Below are positions 18,601 to 33,339 of a stretch of 64,000 bases of DNA, in pieces. The position numbers were made by a program, and so were the translations under genes. The first letter of the stretch is position 1; every line of letters starts with the position of its first letter. The notes under the pieces are model-generated. The model saw nothing but the letters and a program-made list of their open reading frames with translations, did no database searches and was not told the origin of the DNA. Source of the stretch: an uncultured bacterium (GTDB lineage Bacteria > Acidobacteriota > Thermoanaerobaculia > Multivoradales > JAHZIX01); assembly GCA_965368975.1 (NCBI GenBank), contig CBDUPA010000017.1, forward strand, positions 64,001-128,000, in the 5' to 3' direction.

Positions 18601-19648
18601 CCGCAGCCTCACCAGCGGTCTGCGCCGCGGTCGCCGCAAGGCGGTCCAGCTGGACGCCGTCGACCCGATCAAGAGCCGCGTCCTCGACGGTGGCCCGACA
18701 CGGGCCCTGGTGCTCGAACCTGCCGTTCCCGATGTCGACCTGACCGGCTGGGCCGCCGCCCAGCGCGATCAGCTCGACCGTCATCTCGACGAGTATGGCG
18801 CCGTCCTGCTACGCGGCTTCCACGTGCGCGAAGTCGAAGAGTTCGAACGCTTCGCCGCCGCCGTCTGCGGAGAGCTCTACAGTGACTACGGCGACCTGCC
18901 CCACGATGCTGCCGAAGGTCAGGTCTACACCGCCACCCCGTACCCGCCGGACCAGCGCATCCTCTACCACAACGAGAGCTCGCAGATGGACAAGTGGCCG
19001 ATGCGCCAGATCTTCTGGTGCGCGCAGCCCTCCCTGGTCGGCGGCGAAACCCCGATCACCGATTGCCGCCAGGTCTACAAGAAGCTCGATCCCAAGATCC
19101 GCGCCGACTTCGCCCAGAAGGGCTTGATGTACGTGCGCAACTTCGTTCCGGGCGTCGATGTGCCGTGGCAGGAATTCTTCCGCAGCGAAGACCAGGCCAC
19201 CGTCGAAGCCCGCTGCCGCGCCGCCGGCATGGACGTCGAGTGGCTGGCCGATGGCGGTCTCAGAACCAAGCGTCAAGGCCCCGGCGTCGCGCGCCATCCA
19301 AGAACCGGCGAAGAGATCTTCTTCAACCAGATCCAGGCCCACCACATCGCCTGCCTGGAACCCGAAGTGCGCAAGAGCCTGCTAGAAATTACCTCCGAAG
19401 AAGGTCTACCGCGCAACGTCACCTTCGGTGATGGCACCCCGATCCCGGACGACGTGGTGCAGCAGATCGTCGAGCTGTACGACGAGCTGAGCCTCATCTC
19501 ACCCTGGCAACAAGGCGACGTGCTGGTCGTCGACAACATGCTCATGGCCCACGCTCGGAATACCTTCTCCGGGCCGCGCAAGATCTACGTCGCGATGGGG
19601 CGGATGGTGACCTTTGACGAGATCAAGGGGAATATGCCGGAGGGTTGA
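3641..19648 (+). CDS. Non-ribosomal peptide synthetase, C1-A1-T1-C2-(Pro-rich linker)-C3-A2-T2-C4-A3(methyltransferase-interrupted)-T3-C5-TauD/SyrP-like dioxygenase; no TE
   Basis: Five HHxxxDG condensation motifs, each preceded by S(F/Y)AQxR(L/M)W. Three YTSGSTGxPKG A3 motifs. Three GGHSLL thiolation motifs. VLDVGTG SAM motif inside A3. C-terminal HNE...DNMLMAHAR Fe(II)/2-oxoglutarate motif. Confidence 0.97.
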   Translation: MTQNSRTHLTSQQRALMRRLLARKGVAAPAADALAAGELVPRSPEDDPPPLSFAQQRMWLLDSLQPGNPFYNIPDILFLDGPLEPRRLHRALRGVVERHEVLRTAYALPPDAEATASAALGASPAAAARPREPCQLVQAQVDLPLPLLDLRGLAADPERQAAEVERLGEAEARRPLRLDQPPSLRTTLVRLEPHRHAFFVVLHHIAADGWSKSVLAAELAALYRGAALPPLPIQYADFALWQRRWLGQGELERQLAWWRGQLGEEADAGAVTALELPTDRPRPPEFSHRGAGRPLIVPAGLVSRLRALGRAGTGDKGTGQGSGDVTLFMLLLAGLQALLYRLSGQSDIAVGSPVANRRRAELEALIGFFANTLVLRTDLRGGPSFRQLLERVRHVTHDAFEHQDLPFERLVEELQPARDLSRTPLFQVLLVLQNTPPASAIEMSAEGSPSGEVSPAGDGPLVLQRRPLDTGTAKFDLTVDLASSEPGAGDVDGALLGGIEYATDLFDATTVDRLGAQLVRLLQAAVAQPEHPISALSLVTPAERQQLCVEWQLFERAGNAAESTSDVSIAAPVLRWAARSPDLIAVTADRHFLSYGELVRRSGHLAAALRAHGVGVDEQVCIAQDRVCGYPLALLGVLRAGAACVPLDLTWPAARHEILLAEAKPRLVLDAPTLAQLLEEGLLEEGPLQGRLPAESDRLEADGPPSIQALAYVLYTSGSTGTPKGVAMPHGPLRHMLAWQVRASAAGASADTVRSERTLQFASPGFDVSFQEIFSTWSAGGTLVMVREAVRRDPETLLDFLAERRIGRLFLPFVALQALAEVAAAQRAGRWPALREVMVAGEQLRVGPALRTWFGDLLRGKRAARLANHYGPTEAHAVSAEILPADVETWPSLPLVGRPVAGAVLYVVDPDAAVHGWPGVLSPIGVPGELLIGEVTVGDGALARGYLDRPRWTAERFVPDGAGIFACGAGKLPHGGRLYRSGDLARYLPDGRLECFGRLDAQVKVRGYRVEPGEVETVLASQPQVVQAVVVTRPSGRGVLLVAYVVMAKETPTGEPPASTRDPHLATLRDSLRGQLPDYMVPAHIVALDALPTTGSGKVDRRALQRLSLDAVTANAAAGGDASDAPSTPAEIQLAEIWCELLGVARVGVDDDFFDLGGHSLLATWLSVRARDAFEIELPVRAVFEHPRLAQLAVEIERLRRDGQGLSPLPPLRPRSAATPPDASRGHQDCLYEGPVSFAQERLWFLEQLRDGDTGYRLASRLRLLGDLDARALATAIDGLAARHETLRTVFADHDGEPIQRVLPPRRGALALPCVDLSGVVDRATETQRTSLLGRLTGTFQRQPLPLDTGPLLRLLLLRTGGRDEHLLLFNLHHIISDGWSMSVMFRDVGELYAAAVDGRAPRLPVLSVQYADFAAWQRGWLEGDRLDEQLTYWQQRLSEPRLPQPLRLPRDRPVAPGAGPGRGGMVTGALPPELARQVETFARRHDVTPFMVLLAAFAVLLGRLANTDDVLLGTPVANRRSRELEGLIGFFINLISLRLEVAPATTFKALLAQVRSVTLGAYDHQDIPFERLVELVQPDRRDGDVPLAQVTFQLLNTPRAEAAELPRLRMEQQPLEVRRAKLDLGLMFEGQGEHLGWLAEYDADRFDRASVEHWLAAFQELLASALAEPRQVVDDLPALDIVRRRQPSGVAPVLPSAPSLVPPMAPPSLAPPALAPPSLAPPELAPPELIPPPVASPPPLHMPEEPETPIKQPAEGNDSEPDEPLTLSDAPMLLPAARKARGVPLSFAQERLWFIDRLEPTAAAAYNTPGRIYLEGVVQPAALRVAIHALIARHESLRTVFVEIEAQPLQRVAAVASPLGQPPLPVVDLGGLAETDGAKQADVLTARAATHPFDLARGPLLQIFLLRLAAGLSGESTSPRHQLYFNLHHIVTDGWSMEILFREMARLYQAAATGGTASPASGPAQVLAQEAGLPPLPVQYPDFAVWQRAWLSGDELQRQIDYWRRQLAARDAQEGSPQEGGGLEWTRLQLPEDHPPPAEPRADRCGRLPVRLPLPLVRSLDGFARRHEATLFMTLLAGFALLLHRLTGQRDLTVGTPIANRRHVDVEGLIGFFANTLVLRADLTAGTGTGSGDPGFGQLVDRLRRTTLEAYDHQDLPFARLVEALQPERQLGRTPLFQVLFQLHKAQPVTEARTTEVTLELETLDAGLAKFDLELTLSQIQGPVAGTLVYNADRFDATTVRRWMDDYLRLMRAAVRAPERPVTRLDVLTPSASQQLVREWGSGPLSDTWSGPASRNQPEPLPTLPCLVFEQARRTPHAIAVQGRRHALSYATLTARARRLASALRHTRNDEESIIGLSLPRGPRACVALLGVLDSGAAVLPIDPAYPRERRDLMLQDSGTRRVLDGGAVDELLQLPDGAAEPQVATRASVPEPHPHQLCYLLYTSGSTGVPKGVAMRHGLMAQVLAWELRRNAPVPQTPVPQTPVPQTPVPQTSVPQTGPHRTLAFTPLSFDVSFQETFATWGAGGTLVLVDEDTRRDPHLLLRHLLRQRVQRLYLPFVALQALAEASAAPEAPRPDELVELITAGEQLRMTPALTAWLQRRPTLRLHNHYGPTETHAISAWSLGRRRPGELVRAPALPPIGRPIDGVRVYVVDSLARPRPIGCVGELWAGAEFADHGSPARGYHRRPALTAARFVPDPLIREPHRRGARVYRTGDLARYRADGELEFLGRRDTQLKVRGFRVEPGEVEAALEALAGVGQAVVVPRQGAGGVALIAYVLVAAELVASESPPDAASLRDTLRRRLPDYLVPAAVHVVETLPKTPSGKVDRRALRQRAAEQEAVAVEFVAPHSVTEEQLAALWADLLQRQQVGVRDHFFDIGGHSLLATTLTARLRDVFGVEVPVKAVFEHPHLDELAAEIDRLRATDSAPVLPPLEPVPRDARGLPLEPLPVSFAQERLWLTERLSEDAAGGYRLPGKLELLGDFRPLAMARALRRLVSRHETLRTVFAEVDGAPVQRPLPAREARVELPVVDLSRLAATTAAVLESSLTAQLMAQPMPLAEGPLLRVLLLRFAPFSPEPTELPQPARAKHLLLFNLHHIVADGWSMGILFREVSQFYRAEVEGTADALELPPLPVHYGDFAVWQRQWLSGERLDAQLSWWRQHLDGAPAAVELPADRPRPPRVGRSGALSDHLPASLEAGLSQLGRRHGATLYMVLLAAFSALLPRLGSGRDLVLGTPVANRRHRGLEGLIGFFINVLAVRLQPARDVDFATWLQQVRQLTLDVYDHQDLPFERLVEALQPAREPGRPSLVQVVFQLQNTPPAAAVELPGLQLRMRGVELERAKFDFSLMAERVGDASGGAPVVLVADYNADLFDATTVRRWLRAFEVLLEGAIAAPGTPLGALPVLDAVARQQALVEWNDVEAPYDRDATLPELFAGQVRQRPDAIGIVYGRRHLGYREIARRAGRIAALLSRRWAGRAAAENRVAVTGQRSPELVLATVGVTLAGGAYVPLDPDTPVHRLAFQLHDAGAEVLLVDAASRDHLAQAVAAAAELGSTESPATVELMDFEAVLAQDVPSAAPREALHPDDLHPENLVNIFYTSGSTGKPKGVAVTHRGVVRLIQAGVTPTAGYPGFGVERRVAQSANPVFDPTTYEIWGALVHGGCLVEVPKAQLLAPETLGDFLRARRIDVQYLTVAVVSLIARQAPDALNSVDVQLLGGEAIAPARVAEILDAGSPRHLIHVYGPTETTAWCSYEDLCKLPVLPSGGRVPSGQPTLTVGRAVPNDTIYYLDGRFRPVPTGCPGEICAGGDGVVRGYLGRPGRTAEVFIPDALSGRPGARLYRTGDLGRWRADGRLEFLGRVDFQVKIRGLRIEPGEIEAVLRRYPEVRDAVVLVLGEGDERQLGACVLTRPDESPSSLQVRDTRDEPPEIWPNVGEYQIYDELLYYAMSRDVRRNQAYRQALQRLLSDAASPGLTVLDVGTGHDAIWARYAAEAGAAHVYGLEVLEASAAAAREEVRRAGLDDRITILHGDVTDPTFRLPPHPDGRERRVDLIVSNLIGTIGGCEAAPVLLGHARRFLAPGGRMIPARCRTRLAGVTLPPELQDEPRFTPLAADFARRVFDAVGHPFDVRLNLRHFPPSLRLTVAAGPDGDVFEDLDFRDPHGQPAATQGVFSSPVFSSEYERRLHLRVELPEQSDARLDGFLLWLELQTAAPATQAPTGGEAPTGEASIVLETLDPPCSWLPVYLPVFEPPQRVRTGDEIELTVEARLAADGLHPDYHVRGWLRRDPAQGGDVEIDFESPFVGPAVPAASAAAHPPSRRPALYRALFGDSGEPRVAQTAQDALLAELHAHLQTQLPDFMVPSRLLALDALPLTPNGKVDRAELSRRLLRQAAAGAIRAGEAAEVVTFDGPHAETARTIATVWQDVLGLESSVGPEDQFFALGGHSLLATRVISRLRKTFELDIPLRWMFESPTPAELAPRVDGLRPAPEAAVPAGDAEPPLVPVPRDQPLPLSYAQQRLWLADQLQPGDIAYNMPLGVRLRSESPEGELDIAALSHALDTVVARHEALRTTFPVGSDGEPVQHIAGPRPSPLPVVDLSALPEEVAQAESERLGLGHARHRFDLARGPLLVAAIVRQRRDDHALLLNLHHVIADGWSLAILVRELSGLYRALLEPGQDRVELPELAIQYADFAVWQRRYLAGDGLDGDRLDGDSQDKGAREQLLDHWRQVLAGAPPVLDLPSDRPRPEVRSLRGDRRVRGHQAEQRQRLEALAQAHQGTLFMVLLAAFKTLLYRLTGQHDIVVGTDIANRNRPEIEDLIGFFINHPVLRTDLAGNPTFAELVDRVRAVTVDAYAHQDLPFDLLVEELQPERSPSVTPLFQVLFVMQNAPTGGTPVTTGLTLEAMPGESHSSKYDLVVEALEFGDGLALSWTFRTDIFDAATVEQLAERYALLLDQVAADPDRRLDELSLEIESDKERRAMEEQQRRSLTSGLRRGRRKAVQLDAVDPIKSRVLDGGPTRALVLEPAVPDVDLTGWAAAQRDQLDRHLDEYGAVLLRGFHVREVEEFERFAAAVCGELYSDYGDLPHDAAEGQVYTATPYPPDQRILYHNESSQMDKWPMRQIFWCAQPSLVGGETPITDCRQVYKKLDPKIRADFAQKGLMYVRNFVPGVDVPWQEFFRSEDQATVEARCRAAGMDVEWLADGGLRTKRQGPGVARHPRTGEEIFFNQIQAHHIACLEPEVRKSLLEITSEEGLPRNVTFGDGTPIPDDVVQQIVELYDELSLISPWQQGDVLVVDNMLMAHARNTFSGPRKIYVAMGRMVTFDEIKGNMPEG
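8756..8830 (+). repeat. Degenerate 15-bp tandem repeat x5 encoding APPxL in the C2-C3 linker of the NRPS
   Basis: gcacccccatcacta gcaccccccgccttg gccccaccgtccttg gcgcccccagagctg gcacctcccgagctg. Confidence 0.85.
11063..11137 (+). repeat. 15-bp tandem repeat x5 encoding (P/S)VPQT inside A domain 2
   Basis: ccagtaccccagacc is present three times exactly, plus two near-identical flanking copies. Confidence 0.95.
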
Positions 19649-19659
19649 GAGTTCGTGGA

Positions 19660-20472
19660 CTAGTGCTCCAGAGCTTCTCTTCCCGCTGCGCGAGTCTCGA
19701 GTTCTTTGGCTTGGGTTGGAAATCTGTATATCAGCACAATTTCTGTACGTCGGTTCAGTCTCCACTGCGCGGCCCCCTGATTGGCGGAGTCGAGTTCGGC
19801 ACGATCAAAACTGCGAAGCCGGTTCCGAGTCGAAGGGACGTACTCGCCGAAGCTAGTCGCTGACATCAGGCTCTGTGTCGGGTCGATTCCACTTTCTTGT
19901 TGAAGGAAGTGGAAGACAGAGAGAGCTCTCTCTGAAGCCAGGTGCAGATTTGAAGCGTATTTTGAAGTTGATCTCGGGTCTGCATGAGCCTGAATCTGTA
20001 TTTCTTCGATGTAGTCCAGACGAGGCTGGATCACTCTAGTGAGGAGGCGAAGCATTCGCTTGCTTGGGGTGAGAAGATGGTGTTCGTTCTCCTCGAACAG
20101 CAGGTGGTTCTCGAAGGAGAAGCGCTGCAATGTCAGGGAGTTGACGATTGTCACATCGGGTCTCGCAGTCTCGGCCGTTGCTAGAGTGAAGGTATCGGCG
20201 TTGCGAGCGTTCGTGAAGAGTTGGAGTTGTGTAGCAATAGCTATGGCCTGGATCAGCTCCAGTTGTCTCTCGTTGAGTAGGGCCAATCTACTCAATAGGC
20301 TGTCTTGCTCATCTACTACCGTGGAGGCAGATTCGGAGTTCGCCTCTAACGGTATTGGTGCTTGTGAACTGAAGGCCACCACCAGTAGGGCTAGGACTGC
20401 CACTAAGGACAGCATTAGATCGGTTCCAGGGCCGAATAGGTCTTCGTCAGGGGCTTGTCTTTCAAAGGACAT
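19660..20472 (-). CDS. ZorB/MotB-like protein: single TM helix with conserved Asp plus OmpA-like peptidoglycan-binding domain
   Basis: N-terminal GTDLMLSLVAVLALLVVAF (Asp in the TM). C-terminal IQIQAHAD...NLHLASERALSV...SFGEYVP...NRRTEIVL. The ATG directly follows the TAA of the upstream gene. Confidence 0.85.
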   Translation of the reverse strand: MSFERQAPDEDLFGPGTDLMLSLVAVLALLVVAFSSQAPIPLEANSESASTVVDEQDSLLSRLALLNERQLELIQAIAIATQLQLFTNARNADTFTLATAETARPDVTIVNSLTLQRFSFENHLLFEENEHHLLTPSKRMLRLLTRVIQPRLDYIEEIQIQAHADPRSTSKYASNLHLASERALSVFHFLQQESGIDPTQSLMSATSFGEYVPSTRNRLRSFDRAELDSANQGAAQWRLNRRTEIVLIYRFPTQAKELETRAAGREALEH

Positions 20473-22047
20473 TTAGCGCCTCCAAAGCCGAAGGGTTTTG
20501 CGTGAGAGTTTTCTAGCAATTTTTGATGCGAAGTTCAAGGTATTCACAAACATTTTCAGGAGCCGGCGCTCGATGGGTAGGTCCAGGATGCCATCCTGCA
20601 GTGAAGCCATGGCTTCGACCAATTGCTGATGAACCTGACTTGAATTTCTTTGCGTTGCCAATGTCGTCTGCAGGAGTTTCTGTAGAGTAGTATGCGTGGG
20701 TATCAAAGTGGTCGATGGATCGGCAAGAGTCGAAGTGCTTCGTGTCGCCTCAACGACCTCTAGCGTACTGGTCCACCGTGATTCGAGGCGACTGACAATT
20801 TCCGCTAGTTGTTCATATGATCCGGCGAGTGAAGTCTGTAGGATCTGGGTTTGCGCCAAGCTGTCGGAGCCAATTCGAGTAACAGTACTGACCATTCCTT
20901 CCATGTGAGATAGAGGTGTGAGCAGTTCGTTGAACTGTTGCAACAGAGCCTGCAGGTTCCTTTGCAAGTTCCCGACAAGGTTGCGGTTACTATTCTCAAG
21001 CGCGGTCTCCAGTCGCTGCGTGAGTCGCTCGGGTGAGAGCGTCTGGTAGATGTCTCTTAGCTCGGTCAGTAGCAGTTTCTGATCGTCTTGTACCTGGCCA
21101 AGGAACGAATCCAGATGCTCTCGAGCCTCTGCAAGATCGCCCATGCCCTGCTGTAGAGCGTTAGTCTGTGCAGCGATTCTATCGCTTTGATGAAGGATAC
21201 GATCGCTCACCTGGCGGACTGCGGTCTGTACTTCGTTCAGTTCGGCTAGATATGCATCGTTGTTGATACTGTTCCGTGCCATTGAAGTCAGGCCGACTGT
21301 AGCCTCTTCCATGCTGCGGAAATATTCCTGTTGGCGCTGCTGAACGATCAAAGCTAGAAGTTTCAATAAGATAGCTACTTCAATGCCAGCAATGCTCGTA
21401 CTGAAGGCAACCCCGAGATTGTTGAGAAGCCCCTGCAGATCTTCTGGATTTAGTTGTCTTCCGGCTGTCGGAGTGAGATGAGACAAAGCGAAGAGTAGTC
21501 CGACAAAAGTACCGAGGATGCCTACCTGAAGGGCGATACGCTGCAGACTTTGCAAGCGGGACAGACCAGCGAATGCGCCCTCACGGAATGGCTGCATAAG
21601 ACTAAAGGGGGGAGAGAACCGCCGATCCTTAGCCTCGCGTAGTATGTGTTCGAAGAGGCGCAAGATATCTATTTCTCTCTCGGGATTCTGAGGCAGATAG
21701 CGTGCCCCGAGGGCATCCAGCGATGGGCGCGAGAGCGCGCCACCTTCTATACGACGGAGGTCGCTGGCCGCATGCTCGTCAACGCGATCTGCGATCTCAA
21801 TGCTAACTATCAACATGGCCAAGATCTTGCTGGCTAGAATAACACCCCAGATGGCAAGACTATGAATAGCGATAGGTGGTAGCCACACGAGGTAGTTCTC
21901 TGTGACAAGAGCTAGGAAACCCAGGCAGAGGCCCACGGTCAGTATGATGCAAGACACCGTGAACAACCAGCGCTCTCGCAGCCAGAAGGCGGGAAAGCGA
22001 ATCACGTCCTTGGGAGCTTGCAGCGCGAAATCATGATTGCTCATCAT
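20473..22047 (-). CDS. ZorA-like MotA/TolQ/ExbB-family proton-channel protein with long helical cytoplasmic tail
   Basis: N-terminal hydrophobic helices, QVGILGTFVGL and LGVAFSTSIAG channel motifs, then about 290 aa of Leu/Gln-rich helical tail. The tail is a ZorA hallmark absent from MotA/ExbB. Confidence 0.82.
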   Translation of the reverse strand: MMSNHDFALQAPKDVIRFPAFWLRERWLFTVSCIILTVGLCLGFLALVTENYLVWLPPIAIHSLAIWGVILASKILAMLIVSIEIADRVDEHAASDLRRIEGGALSRPSLDALGARYLPQNPEREIDILRLFEHILREAKDRRFSPPFSLMQPFREGAFAGLSRLQSLQRIALQVGILGTFVGLLFALSHLTPTAGRQLNPEDLQGLLNNLGVAFSTSIAGIEVAILLKLLALIVQQRQQEYFRSMEEATVGLTSMARNSINNDAYLAELNEVQTAVRQVSDRILHQSDRIAAQTNALQQGMGDLAEAREHLDSFLGQVQDDQKLLLTELRDIYQTLSPERLTQRLETALENSNRNLVGNLQRNLQALLQQFNELLTPLSHMEGMVSTVTRIGSDSLAQTQILQTSLAGSYEQLAEIVSRLESRWTSTLEVVEATRSTSTLADPSTTLIPTHTTLQKLLQTTLATQRNSSQVHQQLVEAMASLQDGILDLPIERRLLKMFVNTLNFASKIARKLSRKTLRLWRR

Positions 22048-24322
22048 TGTCCTCGCTTCCTGTCGTCAGCTGCTTCTGGATAGGTGTCGTTCGGGGATTG
22101 AGAAGGGGGGTTAGATCCTGGAAGGCTGATAGTTCATCTGCGTCTTCAGGCTTTTCCTTGTCTCCTCGGAGGCGCAGAGGTCCAAAGTCAGGCTCACGAT
22201 GGAGAGACTCAGCCATTAGGCTGTCGATCCGAGTCTGGAGATCAAGCAACGTTGGATCATCGGCTGGTACTTCGGCATCCAGCAGCTCTCGCTTCTTCGT
22301 CTCAAGACGCTGGTACTCAGCTAGTCGATTCTGAGAGATTCCTTCGATCAAGTTTATGTCTGCGTTACTGGCAGACTTGAGGCGATTGGTATTAGTCAGC
22401 TTCTTCAGATGTTCCGCCGATGTTGAGTCGCGATTGACGACCAGTAGCTCGATCTCAAGACCGAAGGTTCTGGCCACAGGGCCCAGACTGCTAGCGAACA
22501 ATTCAACCAGTTGAGATTTTTGTTTCCACGTCCTGAAATGCAGGTATTGGGGGGGAAGTGTTGCGAGCCGTTCACGTAGGCCGGCGCCTAGAACTTCCTC
22601 AATAGCTTCTGTTTCTTTCTCAGGAGAGCCGTAGTTCTTTGATAAGAAAATGTGCCAGCCTTCTGATAGGACGCTTCGAACTTGATAGACAATGCGGTAG
22701 GTGACGTTCTCCGATGTTTCATCTAGATTGTGCGGTTCAACGGTGAGTTTGAAGCTGCGATGTCGTCGGCACAGTTCGGTGATGCGTTCTGTGATGCGAT
22801 CTTCCTGCATCCTGAAGACAATCTGGATGTCGTCGGCACTGACGCGTGTAGAAAGGCGCTGTACGATTTGCTGTTGGATCTCATCTGCCACAGACTGCGT
22901 CGCGCTGAGTTCTGGCATGTTGAAATGAAGATAGAATTGCTTAGGTGTGACAGAGTGAAGTGCCTGCTCCGCCCCTTCCTCTGCTTGTGTCCGAATCAGA
23001 TTCTTGATCTGGGCAGTGGGAGTGAGTAGGCGTTCAATTTTGCGAAGATCAGGGATACGGCCAGTCACGACTAATCCCATATTGACCGATACTCTGGGAT
23101 CGGACGTTGCATAGGACCGTGATGATTCGACCTTGAATCCATCGCGTTGAATGACAAGGGGTTCTAGGTCGGTAAGAACGACATGGTGTTTGATCGTGTA
23201 ACCGAGTGATTCCGCTCGATGCTTGACCGCAGTCTTGATTTGCTCAGCTAGCTCCGTAAAATCAAGCAGTAGGCCGACATAGGTCTTATCAAAAAGATGG
23301 TCTTGGATGACGCCTACAACTTCAGTGTTCCACCAGGCGTCGAGTGATTCAAAGCCGCTTCGCTCCCAGAGTCCCGAATTGCGCAGTCTTAGGCGGATGG
23401 TGTTGTGTACTGGGATCTTGGTCTTAGTACCTCGAATCGTGCACTCAACTGTGCGCTCGATCTCGAGAGTTCTTGCTTCAGGAGTAGGAGCGTCACTGTG
23501 GAGTTTCAGGTAGCTGACCTGACGGCCGTACTTGGCCAAGGTTCGATCTAGGCTCACTAGCACCTTGTCGCGGAGTCGTTCGGTACGTTCGAAGTGGAAT
23601 TCATGGAGCGTTACTGCTTGCTGGAAGAAGCGCTGGAGGGATTCTTTGACTCGAACCCCAAGCTTGTGTTCGTCCCTTCGAAGCAGTAACGCCTGCAGCT
23701 CCCCGTTCTGAGCAACATCAAGGGTTGTTGTGACCTCAAGACTCAGCGCGTCATCGTTGTCCATGACCCGAACTGAGAAGGCTTCGATCGTGAGATTGAT
23801 TGGTTTGAGCTCACCGCCAGCCGGGCGAATCTGGCACTGAGCCAGAAGCCCTGCTTCCTCAATAAGATGTGTGCACAGATCCTGTTCAAGATAGTCGCGC
23901 AGTTTTGAAAAACTCTCAGATGGCTCTGAGCTTCTTTGACTTCGTGCGCGATGTTGCTGCTCTAATCGACGTGCTACGAGTTTGTTCAGAGCCAGGAGGG
24001 TACTGTCATCGCTGGCAAGGCATTGAACAAGCGTGTTCTCTCTGTTGGGCGCGCACTCAAGGAATAGTTTAGCCTCTAGCTCCAACGATCGACCGTCGAG
24101 TCTCTTCAGAATGACCGCATCGGTAACGAGTTCGACTTGAGATTCTGTGGAAACTAAGTAGTACCGGACTTCTCGCCATGGCTGAAGGATTGGAGGCTTC
24201 GGGAGTACCCGACGGTGCCGAACGTCGAATATCAGGATCTTGCCTACGATGCTCGGGGAGCCCTTCCGCGAACGAGAGGGTACTCGGCGAATCAATGTGT
24301 CGAGAGGCTGGATACTGCTCAT
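22031..24322 (-). CDS. Hypothetical protein with about five tandem SPFH/band-7-like domains and a C-terminal coiled coil
   Basis: Start ATG at 24322 after GAGGGAG. Recurrent helix-Gly-strand endings: EAGLLAQCQI, KYGRQVSYLKL, SLGYTIKHHVV, RVSADDIQIVF, TFGLEIELLVV. The first three Gly codons are exactly 324 nt apart. Confidence 0.6.
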   Translation of the reverse strand: MSSIQPLDTLIRRVPSRSRKGSPSIVGKILIFDVRHRRVLPKPPILQPWREVRYYLVSTESQVELVTDAVILKRLDGRSLELEAKLFLECAPNRENTLVQCLASDDSTLLALNKLVARRLEQQHRARSQRSSEPSESFSKLRDYLEQDLCTHLIEEAGLLAQCQIRPAGGELKPINLTIEAFSVRVMDNDDALSLEVTTTLDVAQNGELQALLLRRDEHKLGVRVKESLQRFFQQAVTLHEFHFERTERLRDKVLVSLDRTLAKYGRQVSYLKLHSDAPTPEARTLEIERTVECTIRGTKTKIPVHNTIRLRLRNSGLWERSGFESLDAWWNTEVVGVIQDHLFDKTYVGLLLDFTELAEQIKTAVKHRAESLGYTIKHHVVLTDLEPLVIQRDGFKVESSRSYATSDPRVSVNMGLVVTGRIPDLRKIERLLTPTAQIKNLIRTQAEEGAEQALHSVTPKQFYLHFNMPELSATQSVADEIQQQIVQRLSTRVSADDIQIVFRMQEDRITERITELCRRHRSFKLTVEPHNLDETSENVTYRIVYQVRSVLSEGWHIFLSKNYGSPEKETEAIEEVLGAGLRERLATLPPQYLHFRTWKQKSQLVELFASSLGPVARTFGLEIELLVVNRDSTSAEHLKKLTNTNRLKSASNADINLIEGISQNRLAEYQRLETKKRELLDAEVPADDPTLLDLQTRIDSLMAESLHREPDFGPLRLRGDKEKPEDADELSAFQDLTPLLNPRTTPIQKQLTTGSEDNDEQS

Positions 24323-24333
24323 TTTATACTCCC

Positions 24334-27027
24334 TCAGTTGCTCGAGTCGCTTCTCGCACCTGGCATACAATCAAGACGGGCAGATTTGAGTTGCTGCTCT
24401 AAGGAGAGCGAATGGATTCTTAGAGCTCGGAGTACGAGTCGCTTCTCGGTTTGAGTTCGATCCATGCGCTGGAGTTCCGTGGTATATTGTTGCCGCTGAG
24501 TGCGCAAGCTTGCCAGGAGCAGTGCTTGCTGCTGATAGTCGGTGATAGCAAGTGTCTCGGTGAGGAGGCTACGAACGAGCGCACTGCTTTCGGGGTGGGC
24601 TTCTTCCTTCTGAGCGCCTTGTAGGGCGAAACACCAGCTTTCGAGCACCGATGCACGCATGTCCCAAGTTTGTTTTGTTGCATTTGCGCGTTGAATCTCG
24701 TTTGCTGGGGCGGGCGGCCCCAAAGCGTCCTCTTCGAGCAAACTCATGAACTGAAGAATTGCATCTGAAGTAGATGGATGAAAGAGCCAGCGAACGAGTC
24801 TCTTGGTGCGTTGATTGCACTGAGCGCTGTCCTGAGTTATGACACGTAGCAGGGGTTGATCTGGTGGCCAGGCTGGAGACAGCGCGGAGCTTTCTGAGAT
24901 AGTTACTTCCGAAGTATAGACTCCGATAATGATAAGGCTAAAGGTCGCTGACGCAGGTAGACTCTTGGCTTCATTCCGGGGGAGCCAGTCTGACAATTGC
25001 TCTAGCAGCTCTGCCGCGTGCTGCCCTGGCTGTAGCACTCGCATCGACAGAGATTCCATTGCTAGGTCTCTGGTCTCAGGAGGGCTCTCGTCAATGAGGC
25101 GCTTCATCCAGTACAGTGCCTTGAAACGAGAGTCGAAGCGTAAGCGATCGGCAACCTCCAGAACAAGATCCAGAGCACTGCTATGCGATTTGCGTTCAAG
25201 AAAGAACGCGAGTCCCCTGTCGATCGCACTAGTGAGTTGGTGATGTTCTAGCATGTCACGCAGGAGATCTGCGATTCGCTGGTATGTCTCGGAATCTGGC
25301 TCTCTATCTAGTTTGGTTTCCAGGTCTGCTTCGTGGGCGTTATGGGAAGTAAAGACCAAGTCGAATAGCCACGATGGTTCCAGACGTCCTGGATCTGCAA
25401 TTGACATTTGAATGAACAAACGGCTTACGCATCGCACCAGCTCTGGTGATGTTTCTGGAGCTAGAAGAGTATCTTTATCTATGACGGTTTGAAATACACT
25501 GTAGATACGGCTTGTATTGTTAGACCAGAGATGCTTGAGTAATTCTTGATGGTGCTTGGGACGCTTGAACTTGACGATGTGACGTCCGTCTTCAAGGCTC
25601 ATCACGTGAAGTTTACTGTGCCGTAAGTGGCCGTCCGGGTCCTTCTTCCAGAGCCTGAGGAGAGAGCACAAAGCTTCTTGCTGGGCAATCTTGAGCTTTC
25701 CCTTCTTGGTTGTTCTTGCTATCGAGACTTTAGCTACTTGTCTTCGATCGGAAAAGACGATGGTTAGAACTCGCAGGAAATCTGTCGGGTTTATTTCTCT
25801 GAACAGAGTACCCACAAACATCGCTGTTTTGTGCAGCTCAGAGCTTTCTTCAAAGAATTCGGCAATTGAGAATTCTCGTGCTGCTTCCTCGGTTTGGTGG
25901 CGTTGTCTCTCATCAAGTTCGTCTTCCAGCTTTCTAAGCCCCTGGCAGATGACCGCTCTCAGATCTCGATAGAAGTCAGTATCGCTTCGCGGCCACAATC
26001 CTTGCTGTCTCTGGGCCAGCAGGCGTTTCTCGATTGTGTCCACCCTGCGACCAAAGTGGTCTTCTAGTATGGGGCGAAGGAATGGAATTTCGATGTGGGG
26101 AAAGGGAAAGTCATCTTTACGGCGATAGAAAGAATTTGAGATGGAAGAATCTATTTGTAGCAGTATTGATAGTTGAAGTTCTTCGAATCTGTCTGTAAGG
26201 AAGTTCGCTTTATATGGGTGGGTCATGGCGGAGTCTAAGAAGGTGCTAGCGTCACGAATGTGTATCAGTAGGACTACAGAGTCGGAGTGCCCAATCTTCA
26301 ATTCTGTGAACTGATCCAGGGAATTAGATTTATCATGATGACTGGCCGCTTCGGCTCTGTTCCCGGAACTGTTGAGTTGTTGGTGCCTTGCTTCAGATTC
26401 AGGGCTAGGTTGGTAAAAGCGTTGCTCAGCATGCCTGAACGAAGGTGAGTCCATGATTGCTCTGGCGGCAGCCTCGTTAACATTGTTAGCTGCCCCTGTT
26501 ATTGCAAGTACTCGATGTTCCAGAAGCTCCTCTGCGCATCCTCTTAATAAGCGATTTCGTTGAACCGTCGGCAAGTGATGCATTTTTTTCGGAAGAGGGA
26601 TCGTGCGATCTGTCGGTTCATAGCTCTTGGATACAGGGAGTTCAAACCGCTGAACAGAGGCTATGAACTGTTGCTGAATGGATTGCTCGTTTCGACCGTC
26701 TGATCTGGGCTTGGCTACCGTCTTGTCGGAGTTGCTCTCCTCTTTGTCTGGTGAGGGAGCGGTTGCGATGTCTTCGATTGTTGGGCTTGTGTCGGGACCG
26801 TCGAGACTTCTTCGGCTTGATTCTTTTGAACTGGAAGGTTCTGACGGAGCAGACTTATCGCTGTTTGTCTTTGGTTCCCTATTCTTGATTTTCTCAGGAA
26901 GAGTTGCTTCGTTGGCCAGATCGTCCTCTCCCGTCTGCTTCTGATTTCCAAGCTCCGTTTCCTGAGCTGGATCATTATCCGGCTTGGCTGATGCGTGCTG
27001 CCCTTGGTGGTTCTGTGTTTTTGTCAT
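24334..27027 (-). CDS. Hypothetical 897-aa protein: disordered N-terminus, Q-rich motif, degenerate STAND-like P-loop region, alpha-helical repeat C-terminus
   Basis: ATG at 27027, 1 nt after the CHAT stop. About 110-aa S/E/D/K/P-rich N-terminus. RVLAITGAANNVNEAAARAI at the Walker A position, lacking GKT. VVLLIHIRD is Walker-B-like. The C-terminal half is Leu-rich and helical. Confidence 0.55.
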   Translation of the reverse strand: MTKTQNHQGQHASAKPDNDPAQETELGNQKQTGEDDLANEATLPEKIKNREPKTNSDKSAPSEPSSSKESSRRSLDGPDTSPTIEDIATAPSPDKEESNSDKTVAKPRSDGRNEQSIQQQFIASVQRFELPVSKSYEPTDRTIPLPKKMHHLPTVQRNRLLRGCAEELLEHRVLAITGAANNVNEAAARAIMDSPSFRHAEQRFYQPSPESEARHQQLNSSGNRAEAASHHDKSNSLDQFTELKIGHSDSVVLLIHIRDASTFLDSAMTHPYKANFLTDRFEELQLSILLQIDSSISNSFYRRKDDFPFPHIEIPFLRPILEDHFGRRVDTIEKRLLAQRQQGLWPRSDTDFYRDLRAVICQGLRKLEDELDERQRHQTEEAAREFSIAEFFEESSELHKTAMFVGTLFREINPTDFLRVLTIVFSDRRQVAKVSIARTTKKGKLKIAQQEALCSLLRLWKKDPDGHLRHSKLHVMSLEDGRHIVKFKRPKHHQELLKHLWSNNTSRIYSVFQTVIDKDTLLAPETSPELVRCVSRLFIQMSIADPGRLEPSWLFDLVFTSHNAHEADLETKLDREPDSETYQRIADLLRDMLEHHQLTSAIDRGLAFFLERKSHSSALDLVLEVADRLRFDSRFKALYWMKRLIDESPPETRDLAMESLSMRVLQPGQHAAELLEQLSDWLPRNEAKSLPASATFSLIIIGVYTSEVTISESSALSPAWPPDQPLLRVITQDSAQCNQRTKRLVRWLFHPSTSDAILQFMSLLEEDALGPPAPANEIQRANATKQTWDMRASVLESWCFALQGAQKEEAHPESSALVRSLLTETLAITDYQQQALLLASLRTQRQQYTTELQRMDRTQTEKRLVLRALRIHSLSLEQQLKSARLDCMPGARSDSSN

Positions 27028-27028
27028 G

Positions 27029-28288
27029 TCATGTCTTCTTCGGCGAGATGGCGTTGATGTCACCGAAATTCTGTCGGCTAGCTACAAACTGCTGTTGAAC
27101 GTGCGCATTTTCCATTGCTATGGAGAGTCCTGAACCTGCATCTGTCGCTTGTGTGAGAGTTGGAGTTTGTTTGCCTGGAGTCACTGAGTTCTTGCCATGC
27201 AGTGATCGTTCTGGCTTGGATCCGCGCTGAGGTGAACAGACTTGCCCCTCTTGGAGTCGCATGAACAGAACTGGATCGGTCCAGCGTGAAGAGTTCGGAT
27301 CATTCAAATAGAGACGATGCCGAGTCTCGTTCAAAGCCAAGTCGACATAGCCCGAATGGAGCAGTTGTTGGTAGAAGTGGCGAGGAAATTCCTCCGCAGT
27401 TTGAAAGGAGAGCGAGTCCTGCATCGATATGACAGCGGGTACTCCCTTCCGGACCAGTCGTCGCCCCAGCCCGGAGAAAGGGTTCGCGGCTGTAGCGACG
27501 CCTCCATGGCAGCTGAGGAGGTTGAGAAGCCGTAGATTCTGTGCGCCTAGGAATACCTCGGAGAAGAGATCTTCCTCGACAAAGTCACATGTTCGATCAG
27601 GAGATTCCATAACCATTGTTCCCTTCGCCGTACCCTGATGCAAGAAGCTGTGACCCACGAGGTGCAATATGTGCCATGGAGCAACGGTGAGGCGGTGCCT
27701 TAGGTGTTCCGCCGTCGCCGGAGGTTCGAGAAAGTCCCAGATTATCTGGCCACGAAAGGGGGTCAATACTTCATTCAGTTCACCCATCGTCGATTCGAGA
27801 TCGATCAAGGGCAGTCCGAACTGGTTGCTGTTCAGCGGAGCGACAATGGCTATGAGTAGTTTGGGCTTCCCGATAGCTGGTAATGCTGTATCTAGCCCAA
27901 TGGGTGCATACCTGGAGAAGGCGGTTCTGGGCGAGCGTGCGAGACTCAGCTCCGCATCGGGATCGTGCAGAGTCTCCCAGCGAAGGCTGTGCAGTTCTCT
28001 AGGTGTAGCGTGAGCCAGCGAGAGCTTGAATCTGATGCGGCTCTTGGCACTGTTCAGTGTCCGTCGATACAATGCTCGCATTGGGTCACCGGTTGGGAGT
28101 AACGCTTCAAACAGCCTAGAGCCATACTCGTGGGTCTGGTGGAGTTTGAGGTGTTTGAGTTCACCTACTAGTTCTGGTGACAAGCGAGGACGGCCTGAGG
28201 CTTTGCTGGACGGAGAACGTATCTGTCCCTGGTTCCGGTCCAGAATGTCAACTTCCAGGTCGATGAGCGAAGTTTCTGTCATGTGCAT
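27029..28288 (-). CDS. CHAT-domain (caspase-like, clan CD) protease with low-complexity C-terminal tail
   Basis: ELHSLRWETL, HILHLVGHS (catalytic His), LLNLLSCHGG (catalytic Cys), GVPAVISMQ, FYQQL, WTDPVLFMR. Confidence 0.88.
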   Translation of the reverse strand: MHMTETSLIDLEVDILDRNQGQIRSPSSKASGRPRLSPELVGELKHLKLHQTHEYGSRLFEALLPTGDPMRALYRRTLNSAKSRIRFKLSLAHATPRELHSLRWETLHDPDAELSLARSPRTAFSRYAPIGLDTALPAIGKPKLLIAIVAPLNSNQFGLPLIDLESTMGELNEVLTPFRGQIIWDFLEPPATAEHLRHRLTVAPWHILHLVGHSFLHQGTAKGTMVMESPDRTCDFVEEDLFSEVFLGAQNLRLLNLLSCHGGVATAANPFSGLGRRLVRKGVPAVISMQDSLSFQTAEEFPRHFYQQLLHSGYVDLALNETRHRLYLNDPNSSRWTDPVLFMRLQEGQVCSPQRGSKPERSLHGKNSVTPGKQTPTLTQATDAGSGLSIAMENAHVQQQFVASRQNFGDINAISPKKT

Positions 28289-28469
28289 TCTCTTTGCTGG
28301 AGCGGGGAACTCTTTGCTTCAGAGTGGACCTCTCAAGGTGGTGCGCGCTAGGGACATCCCTAGGATTCATGGATCTAGTACATGGACACTGGCGGGAGTT
28401 TTCTTGTTGCGAAAGGAATTCGGATCTCGGTGTAGCTTCCTGGAGCCGAACTCTTGGAAGCCGCACTAG

Positions 28470-28644
28470 GGTTCAGCCAGAACGAAGCCTGTTCACCCCG
28501 AGCCATGACGAGCCAGTGGTTCGACCGACTGGTTTCCCCGCCAGTCGCAGGATTCCGCCAGGAGGCCTTTCAGCGGCATGGTTGGGACTCTGGAGATCCG
28601 GACATATCATTGAGTTCTTGGGGGCAGGCGACTGGGAAGTCTGA
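28470..28644 (+). pseudogene. Decayed Phd/YefM-like antitoxin remnant
   Basis: Fragments in shifting frames read ...HDEPVVR/LVSPP...FSGMVGTLEI/GHIIEFLGAGDWEV*. This resembles the typical antitoxin C-terminus (PVARLVP...GxMxGTxxIxGDIIEP...WE). No intact start was found. Confidence 0.5.
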
Positions 28645-29053
28645 GCCGAGGAACCCACCGGACCGGATGTCTTCTGGACCCCATATCTGGCTGTGGTTCC
28701 TTGGGGGATCCCTGCGGCTGCCTAAAGGACTCACTACACTGATCCAGGAGAACAGTGATCAGTGCTGGCTTTCGCCCATCTCGATTTGGGAACTTGGAGT
28801 CTTGGTCGACCGAGGACGGCTGACGTTAGACACGAGCCAGGAGTCCTGGGGCCGAAGCTCCCTGGAGAAGCTACCTCTGCGCGAGGCACCGCTGACGCGC
28901 GACGTGGCGCTCGGGGTGCATTCCTTGCAGTTCGAGCATCGAGACCCGGCGGATCAGTTTCTGGCTGCGACCGCACACTGCCTGGACCTGACCTTACTGA
29001 CGGTCGATTCCCGGCTGACAGCGCTGACTTGGTTGTCGACCCGCTCGAAGTAG
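28641..29053 (+). pseudogene. PIN-domain (VapC/PilT-like) toxin with a -1 frameshift at the catalytic LLD(T)H motif
   Basis: ctt ctg gac cc cat atc tgg = LLD-(2 nt)-HIWLW. Downstream SPISIWEL, HRDPADQFLAATA and LLTVD are intact PIN motifs. Confidence 0.7.
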
Positions 29054-29088: not shown

Positions 29089-29703
29089 CTACCCGTGGAC
29101 CGTCGGCGCCACCCCGCCCTTGGCGGAGAGATCCCGCTCCAGCTCCAACCACGACCGCCAGCGTACTTCCAGCTCGTCCGCCGGTAGTTCGCGCTGCGCT
29201 AGCTTGTAGAACATCTGCCAATGACGCTTCTCGGCCGGCCCGAGATCCAGGAGGAGGCGGGCGACTTCCTCGTCGCGGGATTGCAGGACGCGCAGCAGGC
29301 AGGTGAAGCGCTCGCAACTACGGGCCTCGATGAGAGCGCCGAGGCAGAGGCGGTCGACTTTGAGCCACTTCTGGTCGCTTGTTTCCAGGTGACGGCGGAG
29401 ACCCTGGACCCAGGGGTTGGCGCGCTTTCTCGACAGGGGCCAACCACGACGGCGGAGGATGGTCACGACGCGTCGGAGGTGAGACACTTCCTCGGCCGCC
29501 AGGGCCGACATGCGCTCGACGAGGTCTTCGTCGTTGGGATAGTGCCCGACCAGGGAGAGGCCGAAGACGGCCGCCTGTTGCTCACAGATCGCGTGGTCGG
29601 CGAGGAAAGTCGGCAGATCAGCGGCGGCCAGCTCGGCCCAGCGGCTGGGAGTGGTCGAGAGCAAGGGGAGTTCACGGGCCAGCTCTTCTTCCGTGGGGAT
29701 CAT
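29089..29703 (-). CDS. miaE: tRNA-(ms2io6A37) hydroxylase (ferritin-like di-iron)
   Basis: DHAICEQQAA, EEVSH, LIEARSCERF and EKRH motifs. AGGAGG precedes ATG 29703. Confidence 0.85.
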   Translation of the reverse strand: MIPTEEELARELPLLSTTPSRWAELAAADLPTFLADHAICEQQAAVFGLSLVGHYPNDEDLVERMSALAAEEVSHLRRVVTILRRRGWPLSRKRANPWVQGLRRHLETSDQKWLKVDRLCLGALIEARSCERFTCLLRVLQSRDEEVARLLLDLGPAEKRHWQMFYKLAQRELPADELEVRWRSWLELERDLSAKGGVAPTVHG

Positions 29704-29726
29704 GGACGCATCCTCCTGGTTTTCGC

Positions 29727-33310: not shown

Positions 33311-33339
33311 TGCTGGGTTTCCCAGCAAAGGAGTTAGCC

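Follow-up and report, generated by a model that had tools for sequence, protein, structure and literature searches.

What does a bacterial protein do that strings several SPFH-type domains together in one soluble chain, and whose gene lies between those for a caspase-like protease and a Zorya-like motor? The question is raised by a gene, here termed SPFH5, in a 64,000-nucleotide stretch of DNA from an uncultured bacterium of the phylum Acidobacteriota (assembly GCA_965368975.1, contig CBDUPA010000017.1, positions 64,001 to 128,000 of the forward strand). We refer to this whole stretch as the window and give coordinates within it. A sequence-only reading of this DNA had described the SPFH5 protein as about five tandem SPFH/band-7-like domains followed by a coiled coil, and had suggested that it cages or scaffolds the ring of the neighboring ZorA-like protein or is a protease substrate. 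We found that SPFH5 is best called a divergent multi-domain family of the SPFH fold, which has no classical membrane anchor and whose member in the window falls below the Pfam model as a single sequence. With regard to function, the reading we favor, on which we regard the evidence as evenly balanced, is that SPFH5 is a scaffold that holds or regulates a protease in a modular Zorya-like conflict system, most likely directed against phages. The operon containing it probably represents a bacterial conflict or anti-phage system of a new kind.

SPFH5 as a chain of SPFH-type units

The gene and the parts of its product, all on the minus strand, are as follows.

22031..24322, minus strand: SPFH5 (P0001; open reading frame of 763 codons), a soluble protein of 763 amino acids in which five SPFH-core domains in tandem precede a coiled coil and a disordered tail
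23813..24190, minus strand: unit 1 (residues 45–170), ending in the conserved Gly158 and a strand
23486..23812, minus strand: unit 2 (residues 171–279), an SPFH core with VIA-align matches to stomatin, flotillin and FliL
23165..23485, minus strand: unit 3 (residues 280–386), an SPFH core with VIA-align matches to prohibitin, stomatin, HflK/C and the shoulder of the major vault protein (MVP)
22799..23164, minus strand: unit 4 (residues 387–508), longer, SPFH-like and without the conserved Gly, assigned by hhalign, Band_7 and the same order of strands (E) and helices (H), E-E-H-H-E
22424..22798, minus strand: unit 5 (residues 509–633), SPFH-like and ending in the invariant Gly621, assigned by hhalign and by a Band_7 match in unit 5 of the relative P0060
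22202..22423, minus strand: coiled-coil region (residues 634–707), with helices at 635–682 and 690–707 according to DSSP of the model
22034..22201, minus strand: acidic C-terminal tail (residues 708–763) of low confidence (predicted local distance difference test, pLDDT, 38–59)

We modeled SPFH5 by running AlphaFold2 on an alignment of 111 homologues, and obtained a mean pLDDT of 90.4 and a predicted template modeling score of 0.68, with five E-E-H-H-E units followed by a long helix pair. In a Foldseek comparison of this model with the PDB, all seven matches at E ≤ 1e-3 were SPFH proteins (prohibitin and stomatin), and HflK/C, erlin and flotillin came next in the list, slightly beyond this value. 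VIA-align superposed units 2 and 3 on SPFH cores with overall Z scores of 12–14.8 over 103–108 residues and root mean square deviations (rmsd) of 2.2–2.8 Å. For example, unit 3 was aligned with prohibitin (8rrh_A) at Z 14.8 (rmsd 2.2 Å, 104 residues), mouse stomatin (4fvg) at Z 12.4 and HflK/C (7vhq_E) at Z 11.9, and unit 2 with Pyrococcus horikoshii stomatin (8gn9) at Z 12.3 (rmsd 2.6 Å, 103 residues) and flotillin (9l3g) at Z 12.3. Weaker than these canonical SPFH matches were the MVP shoulder (residues 519–644) on unit 3 (Z 9.3–10.0) and the periplasmic domains of FliL (7sgn_E, Z 9.4; 6ahq_C, Z 8.9, the latter on unit 2). The parts of PHB1 (67–174) and erlin (64–176) that were matched by SPFH5 contain residues of the SPFH2 sub-domain, as assigned in the portion of 10.1101/2025.04.21.649849 available to us; this identifies the repeating unit as a core of the SPFH2 type.

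A self-BLAST of SPFH5 gave no internal match at E ≤ 100. Since the repeats have diverged beyond the reach of pairwise sequence methods, we used profile and fold comparison. When sub-alignments of the units were compared by hhalign, unit 2 matched unit 1 at a probability of 92.4% (90 columns), unit 3 at 91.5%, unit 4 at 85.7% (87 columns) and unit 5 at 84.3% (95 columns), compared with at most 2.2% in every control comparison with the coiled coil or with the first 44 residues. The pattern of glycines at the unit ends was as the sequence-only reading had described it, with Gly158, Gly266 and Gly374 exactly 108 residues apart and Gly621 a further 247 residues on. Among the 111 aligned rows, the Gly was kept in 108, 110, 111 and 111 rows for units 1, 2, 3 and 5, respectively; the corresponding position of unit 4 is occupied by Glu, Asp or Ser. 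The median spacings in this alignment were 109, 109, 124 and 123, the first two ranging from 103 to 122. A period of about 109 is thus the property of the family, and the exact 108/108 spacing is the value of the member in the window.

At the level of single sequences, SPFH5 of the window had no Pfam match at E ≤ 1, and hence none to Band_7 (PF01145), and searches with the PADLOC and NCBIfam models were likewise empty. A search of the SPFH5 profile against PDB sequences returned nothing relevant, with a kinesin coiled coil as the best match (E 0.21). However, Band_7 was detected in 13 out of 40 scanned relatives at E ≤ 0.01, nine of which reached the gathering score of 23.6 bits (34.9 bits for the top relative, P0032). 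The best Band_7 stretch of these 13 relatives fell in unit 1 in two, unit 2 in four, unit 3 in two, unit 4 in four and unit 5 in one. The fold matches, the Band_7 matches in relatives and the internal profile homology together bear out the proposal of five tandem SPFH-type domains. That proposal had been staked on the presence of internal repeats and of a fold related to SPFH, and we found both.

The expected coiled coil behind the repeats was also present in the model, and its profile was detected in 107 of the 127 relatives with five units. As had been proposed, no transmembrane (TM) segment was found: the maximum Kyte-Doolittle mean over 19 residues was 1.09, with none reaching 1.6, whereas the ZorA-like and ZorB-like proteins of the operon reached 2.3–2.5 by the same measure. 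Because SPFH5 contains neither a signal peptide nor a TM segment, it should be cytoplasmic. Across the family, there is little conservation of the C-terminal tail. We considered a conserved cleavage or docking motif at the C-terminus and rejected it, the sequence PDFGP being confined to the nearest relatives.

The start of the gene was placed at the ATG at 24322, which is preceded at a distance of 6 nt by the Shine-Dalgarno sequence GAGGGAG, directly behind the stop codon of the preceding gene. The Met encoded there is the first residue in 99 of the 111 aligned homologues and opens a conserved M-S-Q-T-Y-P-L-D-x-V-I-R-R motif. The Shine-Dalgarno sequence and the N-termini of the homologues led us to reject the TTG at 24370 as an alternative start.

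Predicted lateral self-association

We predicted the fold of residues 509–720 (unit 5 and the coiled coil) in four copies and obtained a self-association score of 0.62, compared with 0.00 for the best control. Of 30 proteins whose solved structures are pairs of one chain, 20 reached the mark for self-association in this test, as did 1 of 23 whose structures are single chains. The four-copy runs agreed in at least 71% of contacts, with a partner pLDDT of at least 76. In the predicted assembly, one copy meets two neighbors via two different faces, and unit 5 supplies both lateral interfaces: one face comprises the sheet and the helix start (515–523, 543–547, 595–602 and 625–652), and the other is helical (529–539, 561–589 and 615–620). 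The start of the coiled-coil helix (635–652) lies inside the predicted subunit interface. Lateral contacts between SPFH2 domains and between CC1 segments occur in solved cages, according to the part of 10.1101/2025.04.21.649849 at hand. The prediction thus supports an open-ended, side-by-side packing, as in solved SPFH rings.

Size, modularity and distribution of the SPFH5 family

An exhaustive search of 1.84 billion representative proteins (clusters at 50% identity) identified 491 relatives of SPFH5 at E ≤ 1e-3 and 163 at E ≤ 1e-30, most of which are 720–800 amino acids long and alignable end to end. In contrast, a word-indexed homologue search returned the query alone, whether started from the single protein or from the profile of 111 rows. 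Counting the units in 151 proteins, we found five in 127 of them and 6–11 in the rest, which carry extra copies of units 2–3, unit 3 or units 1–2. Two relatives are head-to-tail doubles, in which units 1–5 and the coiled coil are followed by a second series, beginning at unit 2 or 3, up to unit 5 and another coiled coil. The proteins P0123, P0108, P0006, P0003, P0032 and P0058 comprise relatives that reach 8–11 units by repeated insertion of units 2–3, together with the two doubles. In another relative (P0071), SPFH5 is fused to a vWA domain, and P0132 carries an N-terminal extension of 560 amino acids with a weak HATPase_c_4 match.

The distribution of the family is sporadic. Full-length SPFH5 was found in 2 of 401 genomes from the phylum of the window, with weak partial matches only in five more, and in 1 of 400 genomes from a second phylum, represented by a Holophagales metagenome-assembled genome (MAG). 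The family motif had no match in the collection of viral contigs searched, and tblastn against a collection of 72,556 plasmids gave no match to the SPFH5 family. A search for related loci returned no relative with one alignment (A4) and a single locus with the protein P0151. In the literature on Zorya, SPFH, CHAT, STAND and conflict systems, we found no description of the SPFH5 protein or of its operon; the term 'tandem SPFH' was used there for the SPFH1 and SPFH2 pair only, and no soluble chain with five to eleven cores was found.

A five-gene operon and its conserved neighborhood

SPFH5 belongs to an operon of five genes, all on the minus strand and tightly packed or overlapping, which lies within a region of low GC content. 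The start of the zorA-like gene overlaps the stop of SPFH5 by 17 nt. The neighbors named by the sequence-only reading, i.e. a CHAT protease, a ZorA-like gene and a ZorB-like gene, are all present.

19650..28700 (roughly), no strand: low-GC island, with a GC content of about 0.52 compared with about 0.70 in the flanks (composition profiles), containing the five-gene operon
27029..28288, minus strand: CHAT (caspase-like) protease of 419 amino acids (PF12770, E 7.6e-23)
24334..27063, minus strand: 'BIG', a protein of 909 amino acids without a Pfam, PADLOC or NCBIfam family
20473..22047, minus strand: ZorA-like stator subunit of the MotA/ExbB family, 524 amino acids (PF01618, E 6.2e-7)
19660..20472, minus strand: ZorB-like subunit of the MotB/OmpA family, 270 amino acids (PF00691, E 1.7e-10)

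The window shares the identical order of five genes with G397, a genome of its class, and with the Holophagales MAG of another phylum. We further scanned metagenome contigs with the motif PERFYMRF and obtained 51 loci, 32 with a family member and 19 chance matches. Removal of two duplicates (L036, identical to L009, and L015, identical to L035) and addition of the window, L008 and L009 gave 33 distinct loci. In all 23 loci whose sequence extends at least 700 nt upstream of SPFH5, BIG was located there. Just 5' of BIG, 16 of the 17 loci that reach far enough had a protease gene (nine CHAT and seven trypsin-like), and none was detected in the remaining one (L024). Accordingly, the constant partners of SPFH5 are BIG, the STAND-like protein of about 900 amino acids, and a protease. 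The first of these, an invariable 909-residue partner in the window, had been overlooked by the sequence-only reading, as had the size of the family and its modularity.

The third module is more variable. ZorA was found downstream of SPFH5 in 17 of the 28 loci with at least 900 nt of downstream sequence. The other 11 contained an ARC6-like IMS protein together with a VanY D-Ala-D-Ala carboxypeptidase (two loci), a small unknown protein (three, two of them with genes for VanY or ARC6-like proteins close by), a CHAT-SAVED protein (one), a Ser/Thr kinase with a PEGA domain together with an FHA protein (one), an SPFH5-CHAT fusion followed by an OmpA-like open reading frame (one), or nothing recognized (three). 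ZorA is therefore not an obligatory client of SPFH5. The idea that centered on ZorA fails in this respect, while the self-association typical of cage-forming SPFH proteins, on which it also drew, is supported by the four-copy prediction.

Several loci illustrate this variation. In L020:1019-8402 and L052:1408-8921, the order is trypsin-like protease, BIG, SPFH5, a protein of about 315 amino acids with a C-terminal ARC6-like IMS domain, and VanY, in place of ZorAB. The nearest relative of the window SPFH5 in the tree (L022:142-3055, minus strand) is followed by a Ser/Thr kinase (PEGA/CarboxypepD_reg) and an FHA protein and not by ZorAB. In L061:1310-5251 (minus strand), a single protein of 1,314 amino acids combines a five-unit SPFH5 (15–788) with a C-terminal CHAT domain (PF12770, E 1.2e-24, 1114–1289), and the OmpA-like open reading frame lies directly downstream of this fusion, with no ZorA in between. 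In a maximum-likelihood tree, the loci with a trypsin-like protease and without ZorAB formed one clade (support 100/100). L019, with a trypsin-like protease and ZorAB, was a close sister of L061 with its fused CHAT; thus, the proteases have been swapped over short distances. The fusion argues for a physical association of SPFH5 with the protease, although such a gene arrangement does not tell a scaffold from a substrate.

In another locus, a trypsin-like protease (L042:4061-5308, plus strand) has a long coiled-coil C-terminus, and its last approximately 45 residues match the final part of SPFH5 unit 5 (positions 593–636 of the profile, domain E 2e-4), as though the protease might dock into an SPFH array. 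Additional large CHAT proteins lie by the operon at L009:31-7857, L032:11959-15854, L039:1118-3028 and 13976-17245, and L035:14593-17718; the extra genes of these loci encode TPR-CHAT, pentapeptide-CHAT and TCAD7-CHAT proteins as well as vWA-domain proteins, which suggests clustering with other caspase-like conflict systems.

The low-GC island and the sporadic occurrence suggest that the operon is accessory and mobile or horizontally moving. At the high-coordinate edge of the island, on the strand opposite to the operon, lies a PIN-domain open reading frame of 199 amino acids (28454-29053, plus strand; PF01850, E 2.3e-5), which may be the remnant of a toxin-antitoxin pair at the island border. 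A non-ribosomal peptide synthetase (NRPS) open reading frame of 5,335 amino acids (3641-19648, plus strand), in which several condensation, adenylation and carrier modules were recognized by eye, ends 12 nt short of the island, and the GC content of its final approximately 700 nt is already down to 0.61–0.65. The other flank (29089-32294, minus strand, and 33091-34752, plus strand) encodes a MiaE-like tRNA hydroxylase (E 1.5e-36), a Met-zincin protein with DUF4953/DUF5117 (E 1.5e-59) and a secreted matrixin-CARDB-PKD protease, none of which is defense-related.

BIG, the protease and the ZorAB-like subunits

The AlphaFold2 model of BIG had a pLDDT of 74. Residues 1–149 were disordered, and were followed by an alpha/beta domain (approximately 150–330), a helical lid, a winged-helix-like part and an alpha-solenoid (502–899). 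Foldseek matched this model to SAMD9 (1e-5), Avs4 (1.6e-4), Avs5 (8e-4), Avs3 (1.3e-3) and NLRP9, and the solenoid to ARM/HEAT proteins. VIA-align of residues 151–327 gave Z 9–10 with the AAA+ domains of ClpA, ClpC and NSF, 9.3–9.5 with Avs5, 8.2 with SAMD9, 7.9 with NRC3 and 7.4 with CED-4; the Z scores of 8–10 obtained for residues 151–327/390 are moderately above background. A Walker A motif (GxxxxGK[ST]) after the strand 185–190 was found neither in BIG of the window nor in the aligned relatives, the alignment comprising 17 full-length BIG sequences. BIG of the window and 17 relatives matched no Pfam or NCBIfam family, with nSTAND3 appearing only as a language-model lead (0.94), and the BIG profile returned nothing relevant from PDB sequences. 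With moderate confidence, we take BIG to be an inactive STAND-like protein.

With respect to the protease, the CHAT dyad of His (GHS) and Cys (SCHG) was kept in all ten sequences compared (the window and nine relatives), and the His, Asp and Ser of the trypsin-like proteases were kept in seven out of seven. Of the PADLOC models, the CHAT protein of the window matched SAVED_CHAT only, and its sole NCBIfam match was HetF, a cyanobacterial division protein, at 31.8 bits compared with a cut-off of 1200.

The ZorA-like protein matched the PADLOC models ZorA2 (6.2e-8) and ZorA1 (1.9e-6) over residues 171–483 and the NCBIfam model ZorA_3 at 3e-8, with 33 bits compared with a cut-off of 250. Its hydrophobic segments are at 26–87, 170–193 and 210–237, and its cytoplasmic C-terminal region comprises about 275 amino acids. 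The ZorB-like protein matched ZorB1 of PADLOC (1.9e-10) and has a single TM segment (12–44), with an Asp in 'GTDLML' before it. The other three proteins of the operon matched no Zor model of PADLOC; hence, ZorC/ZorD, ZorE and ZorF/ZorG are missing from the operon.

A proposed scaffold for a protease and the alternative explanations

SPFH proteins classically regulate membrane proteases. If SPFH5 has a corresponding role, it would self-associate laterally by way of its SPFH domains together with the first helix of the coiled coil, and the five tiers of each subunit would form a tall ring-like or tube-like cytoplasmic wall, whose height would be set by the number of units (5–11 in relatives). 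A CHAT or trypsin-like protease would be the interchangeable effector, and BIG, as an inactive STAND-like protein, would be the sensor or adaptor. The input would come from an envelope-spanning module linked to peptidoglycan, namely the putative ion-driven ZorA/ZorB stator in the window and, elsewhere, ARC6-IMS with VanY or the PEGA Ser/Thr kinase with FHA. An envelope disturbance sensed by the ZorAB-like motor would be signaled to the cytoplasmic assembly of SPFH5 and BIG, which might then free or activate the held protease, in the way that HflK/C and prohibitin cages gate FtsH and m-AAA proteases. The SPFH5-CHAT fusion, the SPFH5-vWA fusion and the classical partnerships of SPFH proteins with proteases fit such a scaffold or gate.

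In a bolder version, the assembly would be a free-standing multi-tier cage or tube, a prokaryotic counterpart of the vault, which locks the protease and the STAND-like adaptor inside and is opened mechanically by the rotating ZorAB tail upon a phage breach. We consider this version quite unlikely; if true, it would be a new defense principle, the rotary-motor-driven release of a compartmentalized protease.

Several points weigh against a scaffold in a defense system. Defense was deduced from the nature of the parts and from how sporadically the family occurs; PADLOC has no model that matches SPFH5 or BIG, and the window flanks, with NRPS and metalloprotease genes, form no obvious defense island. 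A mechanism relying on the ZorA tail is not general, because 11 of the 28 assessable loci lack ZorA. The direct fold matches cover units 2 and 3, with units 1, 4 and 5 tied to unit 2 through profiles and the order of elements in the model, and the BIG model is of moderate quality (best Z 10), so that its STAND assignment comes from the fold. The self-association test used a fragment of 212 residues in four copies and our own alignment, and its outcome could stem from the model's memory of, or likeness to, solved SPFH rings. Furthermore, all metagenome loci were obtained with PERFYMRF, which is present in 29 of the 111 aligned relatives; therefore, the tallies of gene context cover part of the family.

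The possibility that SPFH5 is instead the substrate of the protease, a pro-effector cleaved, for example, in the tail or between units, whose cut product would act on the membrane or on ZorAB and stop the infected cell, must also be weighed. In gasdermin operons, a protease cuts the product of a neighboring gene by the same logic, and an archaeal stomatin is cleaved by its operon partner, the NfeD/STOPP protease. The occupation of one slot by two unrelated protease families is typical of cases in which the protease merely cuts its neighbor, and the conserved catalytic residues and the floppy tail behind the coiled coil would also suit a substrate. However, SPFH5 contains no hydrophobic or amphipathic segment for insertion into a membrane, as seen from the hydropathy maximum given above, and the poor conservation of its tail also counts against this explanation. 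The protease fused to SPFH5 in L061 is a better fit to tethering than to a released product, and the disordered 149-residue N-terminus of BIG is an equally good candidate substrate. Thus, we consider the substrate explanation unlikely, although it deserves to be kept in view.

Another explanation is that the operon is an accessory module for envelope or cell-division maintenance, in which SPFH5 organizes a protease and a peptidoglycan-linked machine for cell-wall remodeling or quality control. All alternative third modules (ZorB OmpA, ARC6-like IMS with VanY, and the PEGA kinase) are indeed linked to the envelope or peptidoglycan, the only NCBIfam match of CHAT, far below the cut-off, is to the division protein HetF, and the regulation of membrane proteases by SPFH proteins such as HflK/C and prohibitins would suit this explanation as well. 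It is at odds with the very sporadic occurrence of full-length SPFH5 in the two phyla, with the location in a low-GC island and with the module swaps between close relatives. In addition, the best matches of the STAND-like fold of BIG include the immune proteins Avs and SAMD9, and the CHAT-TPR, TCAD7-CHAT, SAVED-CHAT and vWA genes near several loci are hallmarks of conflict systems and not of housekeeping. These observations make a maintenance role improbable.

Finally, we rejected a FliL-like ring around ZorA5B2 in the membrane or periplasm, tuning the stator as FliL does MotAB, as highly improbable: FliL domains are among the fold matches and SPFH5 directly precedes and overlaps zorA, but the protein lacks the TM or signal segment that a periplasmic ring requires, has five domains instead of one, matches canonical SPFH proteins better than FliL, and occurs without ZorA in the 11 loci described above.

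Comparison with known systems

SPFH5 can be compared with the canonical SPFH/Band-7 proteins (stomatin, prohibitin, flotillin, HflK/C, erlin and QmcA), which are known as single-module, membrane-anchored cage builders. SPFH5 shares with them the alpha/beta core, the long helix after the last domain, the predicted side-by-side self-association and the link to a protease. It differs in having 5–11 cores per chain in the family instead of one SPFH1 and SPFH2 pair, in lacking an N-terminal TM segment or membrane hairpin, in the missing Pfam match of the window protein, and in its CHAT or trypsin-like partners, compared with FtsH, m-AAA or NfeD.

Two further proteins resemble SPFH5 in part. Like SPFH5, MVP is a soluble chain without an anchor, with tandem domains, an SPFH-like shoulder and a long cap helix. 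However, the tandem repeats of MVP are not SPFH domains, and we found no sequence relation between the two; we did not adopt membership of SPFH5 in the MVP family, since among the matches listed, which units 2 and 3 filled, the shoulder alone was aligned and no MVP repeat. Clusters of MVP_shoulder were also present among the language-model neighbors (0.85–0.86), as leads only. FliL has an SPFH-like fold and a gene beside a MotAB-type stator, but it is a single-domain protein with a single TM segment that forms a periplasmic ring, whereas SPFH5 has five domains and no TM segment or signal peptide.

With Zorya types I–III, as far as described in the accessible part of 10.1101/2023.12.18.572097, the operon shares a protein of the MotA/ExbB family whose cytoplasmic C-terminal region appears to be long, a MotB/OmpA protein encoded next to it, both matched best by the ZorA and ZorB models of PADLOC, and soluble partners encoded alongside. 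The same part of that report describes ZorAB as a peptidoglycan-binding rotary motor whose cytoplasmic tail signals to soluble effectors, and gives a length of 729 amino acids for ZorA of E. coli, compared with 524 here. The operon differs from Zorya in lacking the type-specific genes (ZorC/D, ZorE and ZorF/G), and ZorAB is replaceable within the SPFH5 family. Moreover, the effector of Zorya type I is a nuclease/helicase, whereas the effector chemistry predicted here is proteolysis.

In its model, BIG resembles Avs and other STAND proteins in the order of an alpha/beta NTPase-like domain, a helical lid, a winged-helix-like part and a helical-repeat sensor, but it has no Walker A motif and no fused effector domain, the protease being encoded by a separate gene. 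Band7-like 'superstructure-forming' domains, inactive STANDs, caspase-like and trypsin-like peptidases and OmpA/PEGA modules have been described in prokaryotic conflict systems (in the text of PMC7159879). The 'ternary' iSTAND/VMAP systems of Kaur, Burroughs, Iyer and Aravind (2020) in that text have this parts list in common with the SPFH5 operon, their OmpA/PEGA modules being TM-linked. Further points of likeness are the SPFH5-vWA fusion of P0071 and the TCAD7-CHAT and vWA genes that adjoin some SPFH5 loci. In contrast, the operon of the window lacks the MoxR-vWA core, and BIG belongs to no Pfam STAND family; the portions of PMC7159879 compared here name no MotA/ZorA module and no Band7 protein with five domains in tandem.

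Significance of the SPFH5 family

The structural call of the sequence-only reading was correct; its functional idea is partly plausible but was centered on the wrong partner. SPFH5 and its operon are a variation on SPFH scaffolds and on Zorya-like and STAND-protease conflict systems; their architecture is unusual, and the family behind them is large and unannotated. Since this family of 491 clusters has no Pfam, PADLOC or NCBIfam model, the whole operon class is invisible to defense-system finders. A soluble chain of 5–11 SPFH cores would widen the range of SPFH assemblies. The SPFH5 operon joins Zorya motors, STAND immune sensors and the gating of proteases by SPFH proteins, and the module swaps, the protease fusion and the variants in unit number are natural 'experiments' that make this link directly testable.

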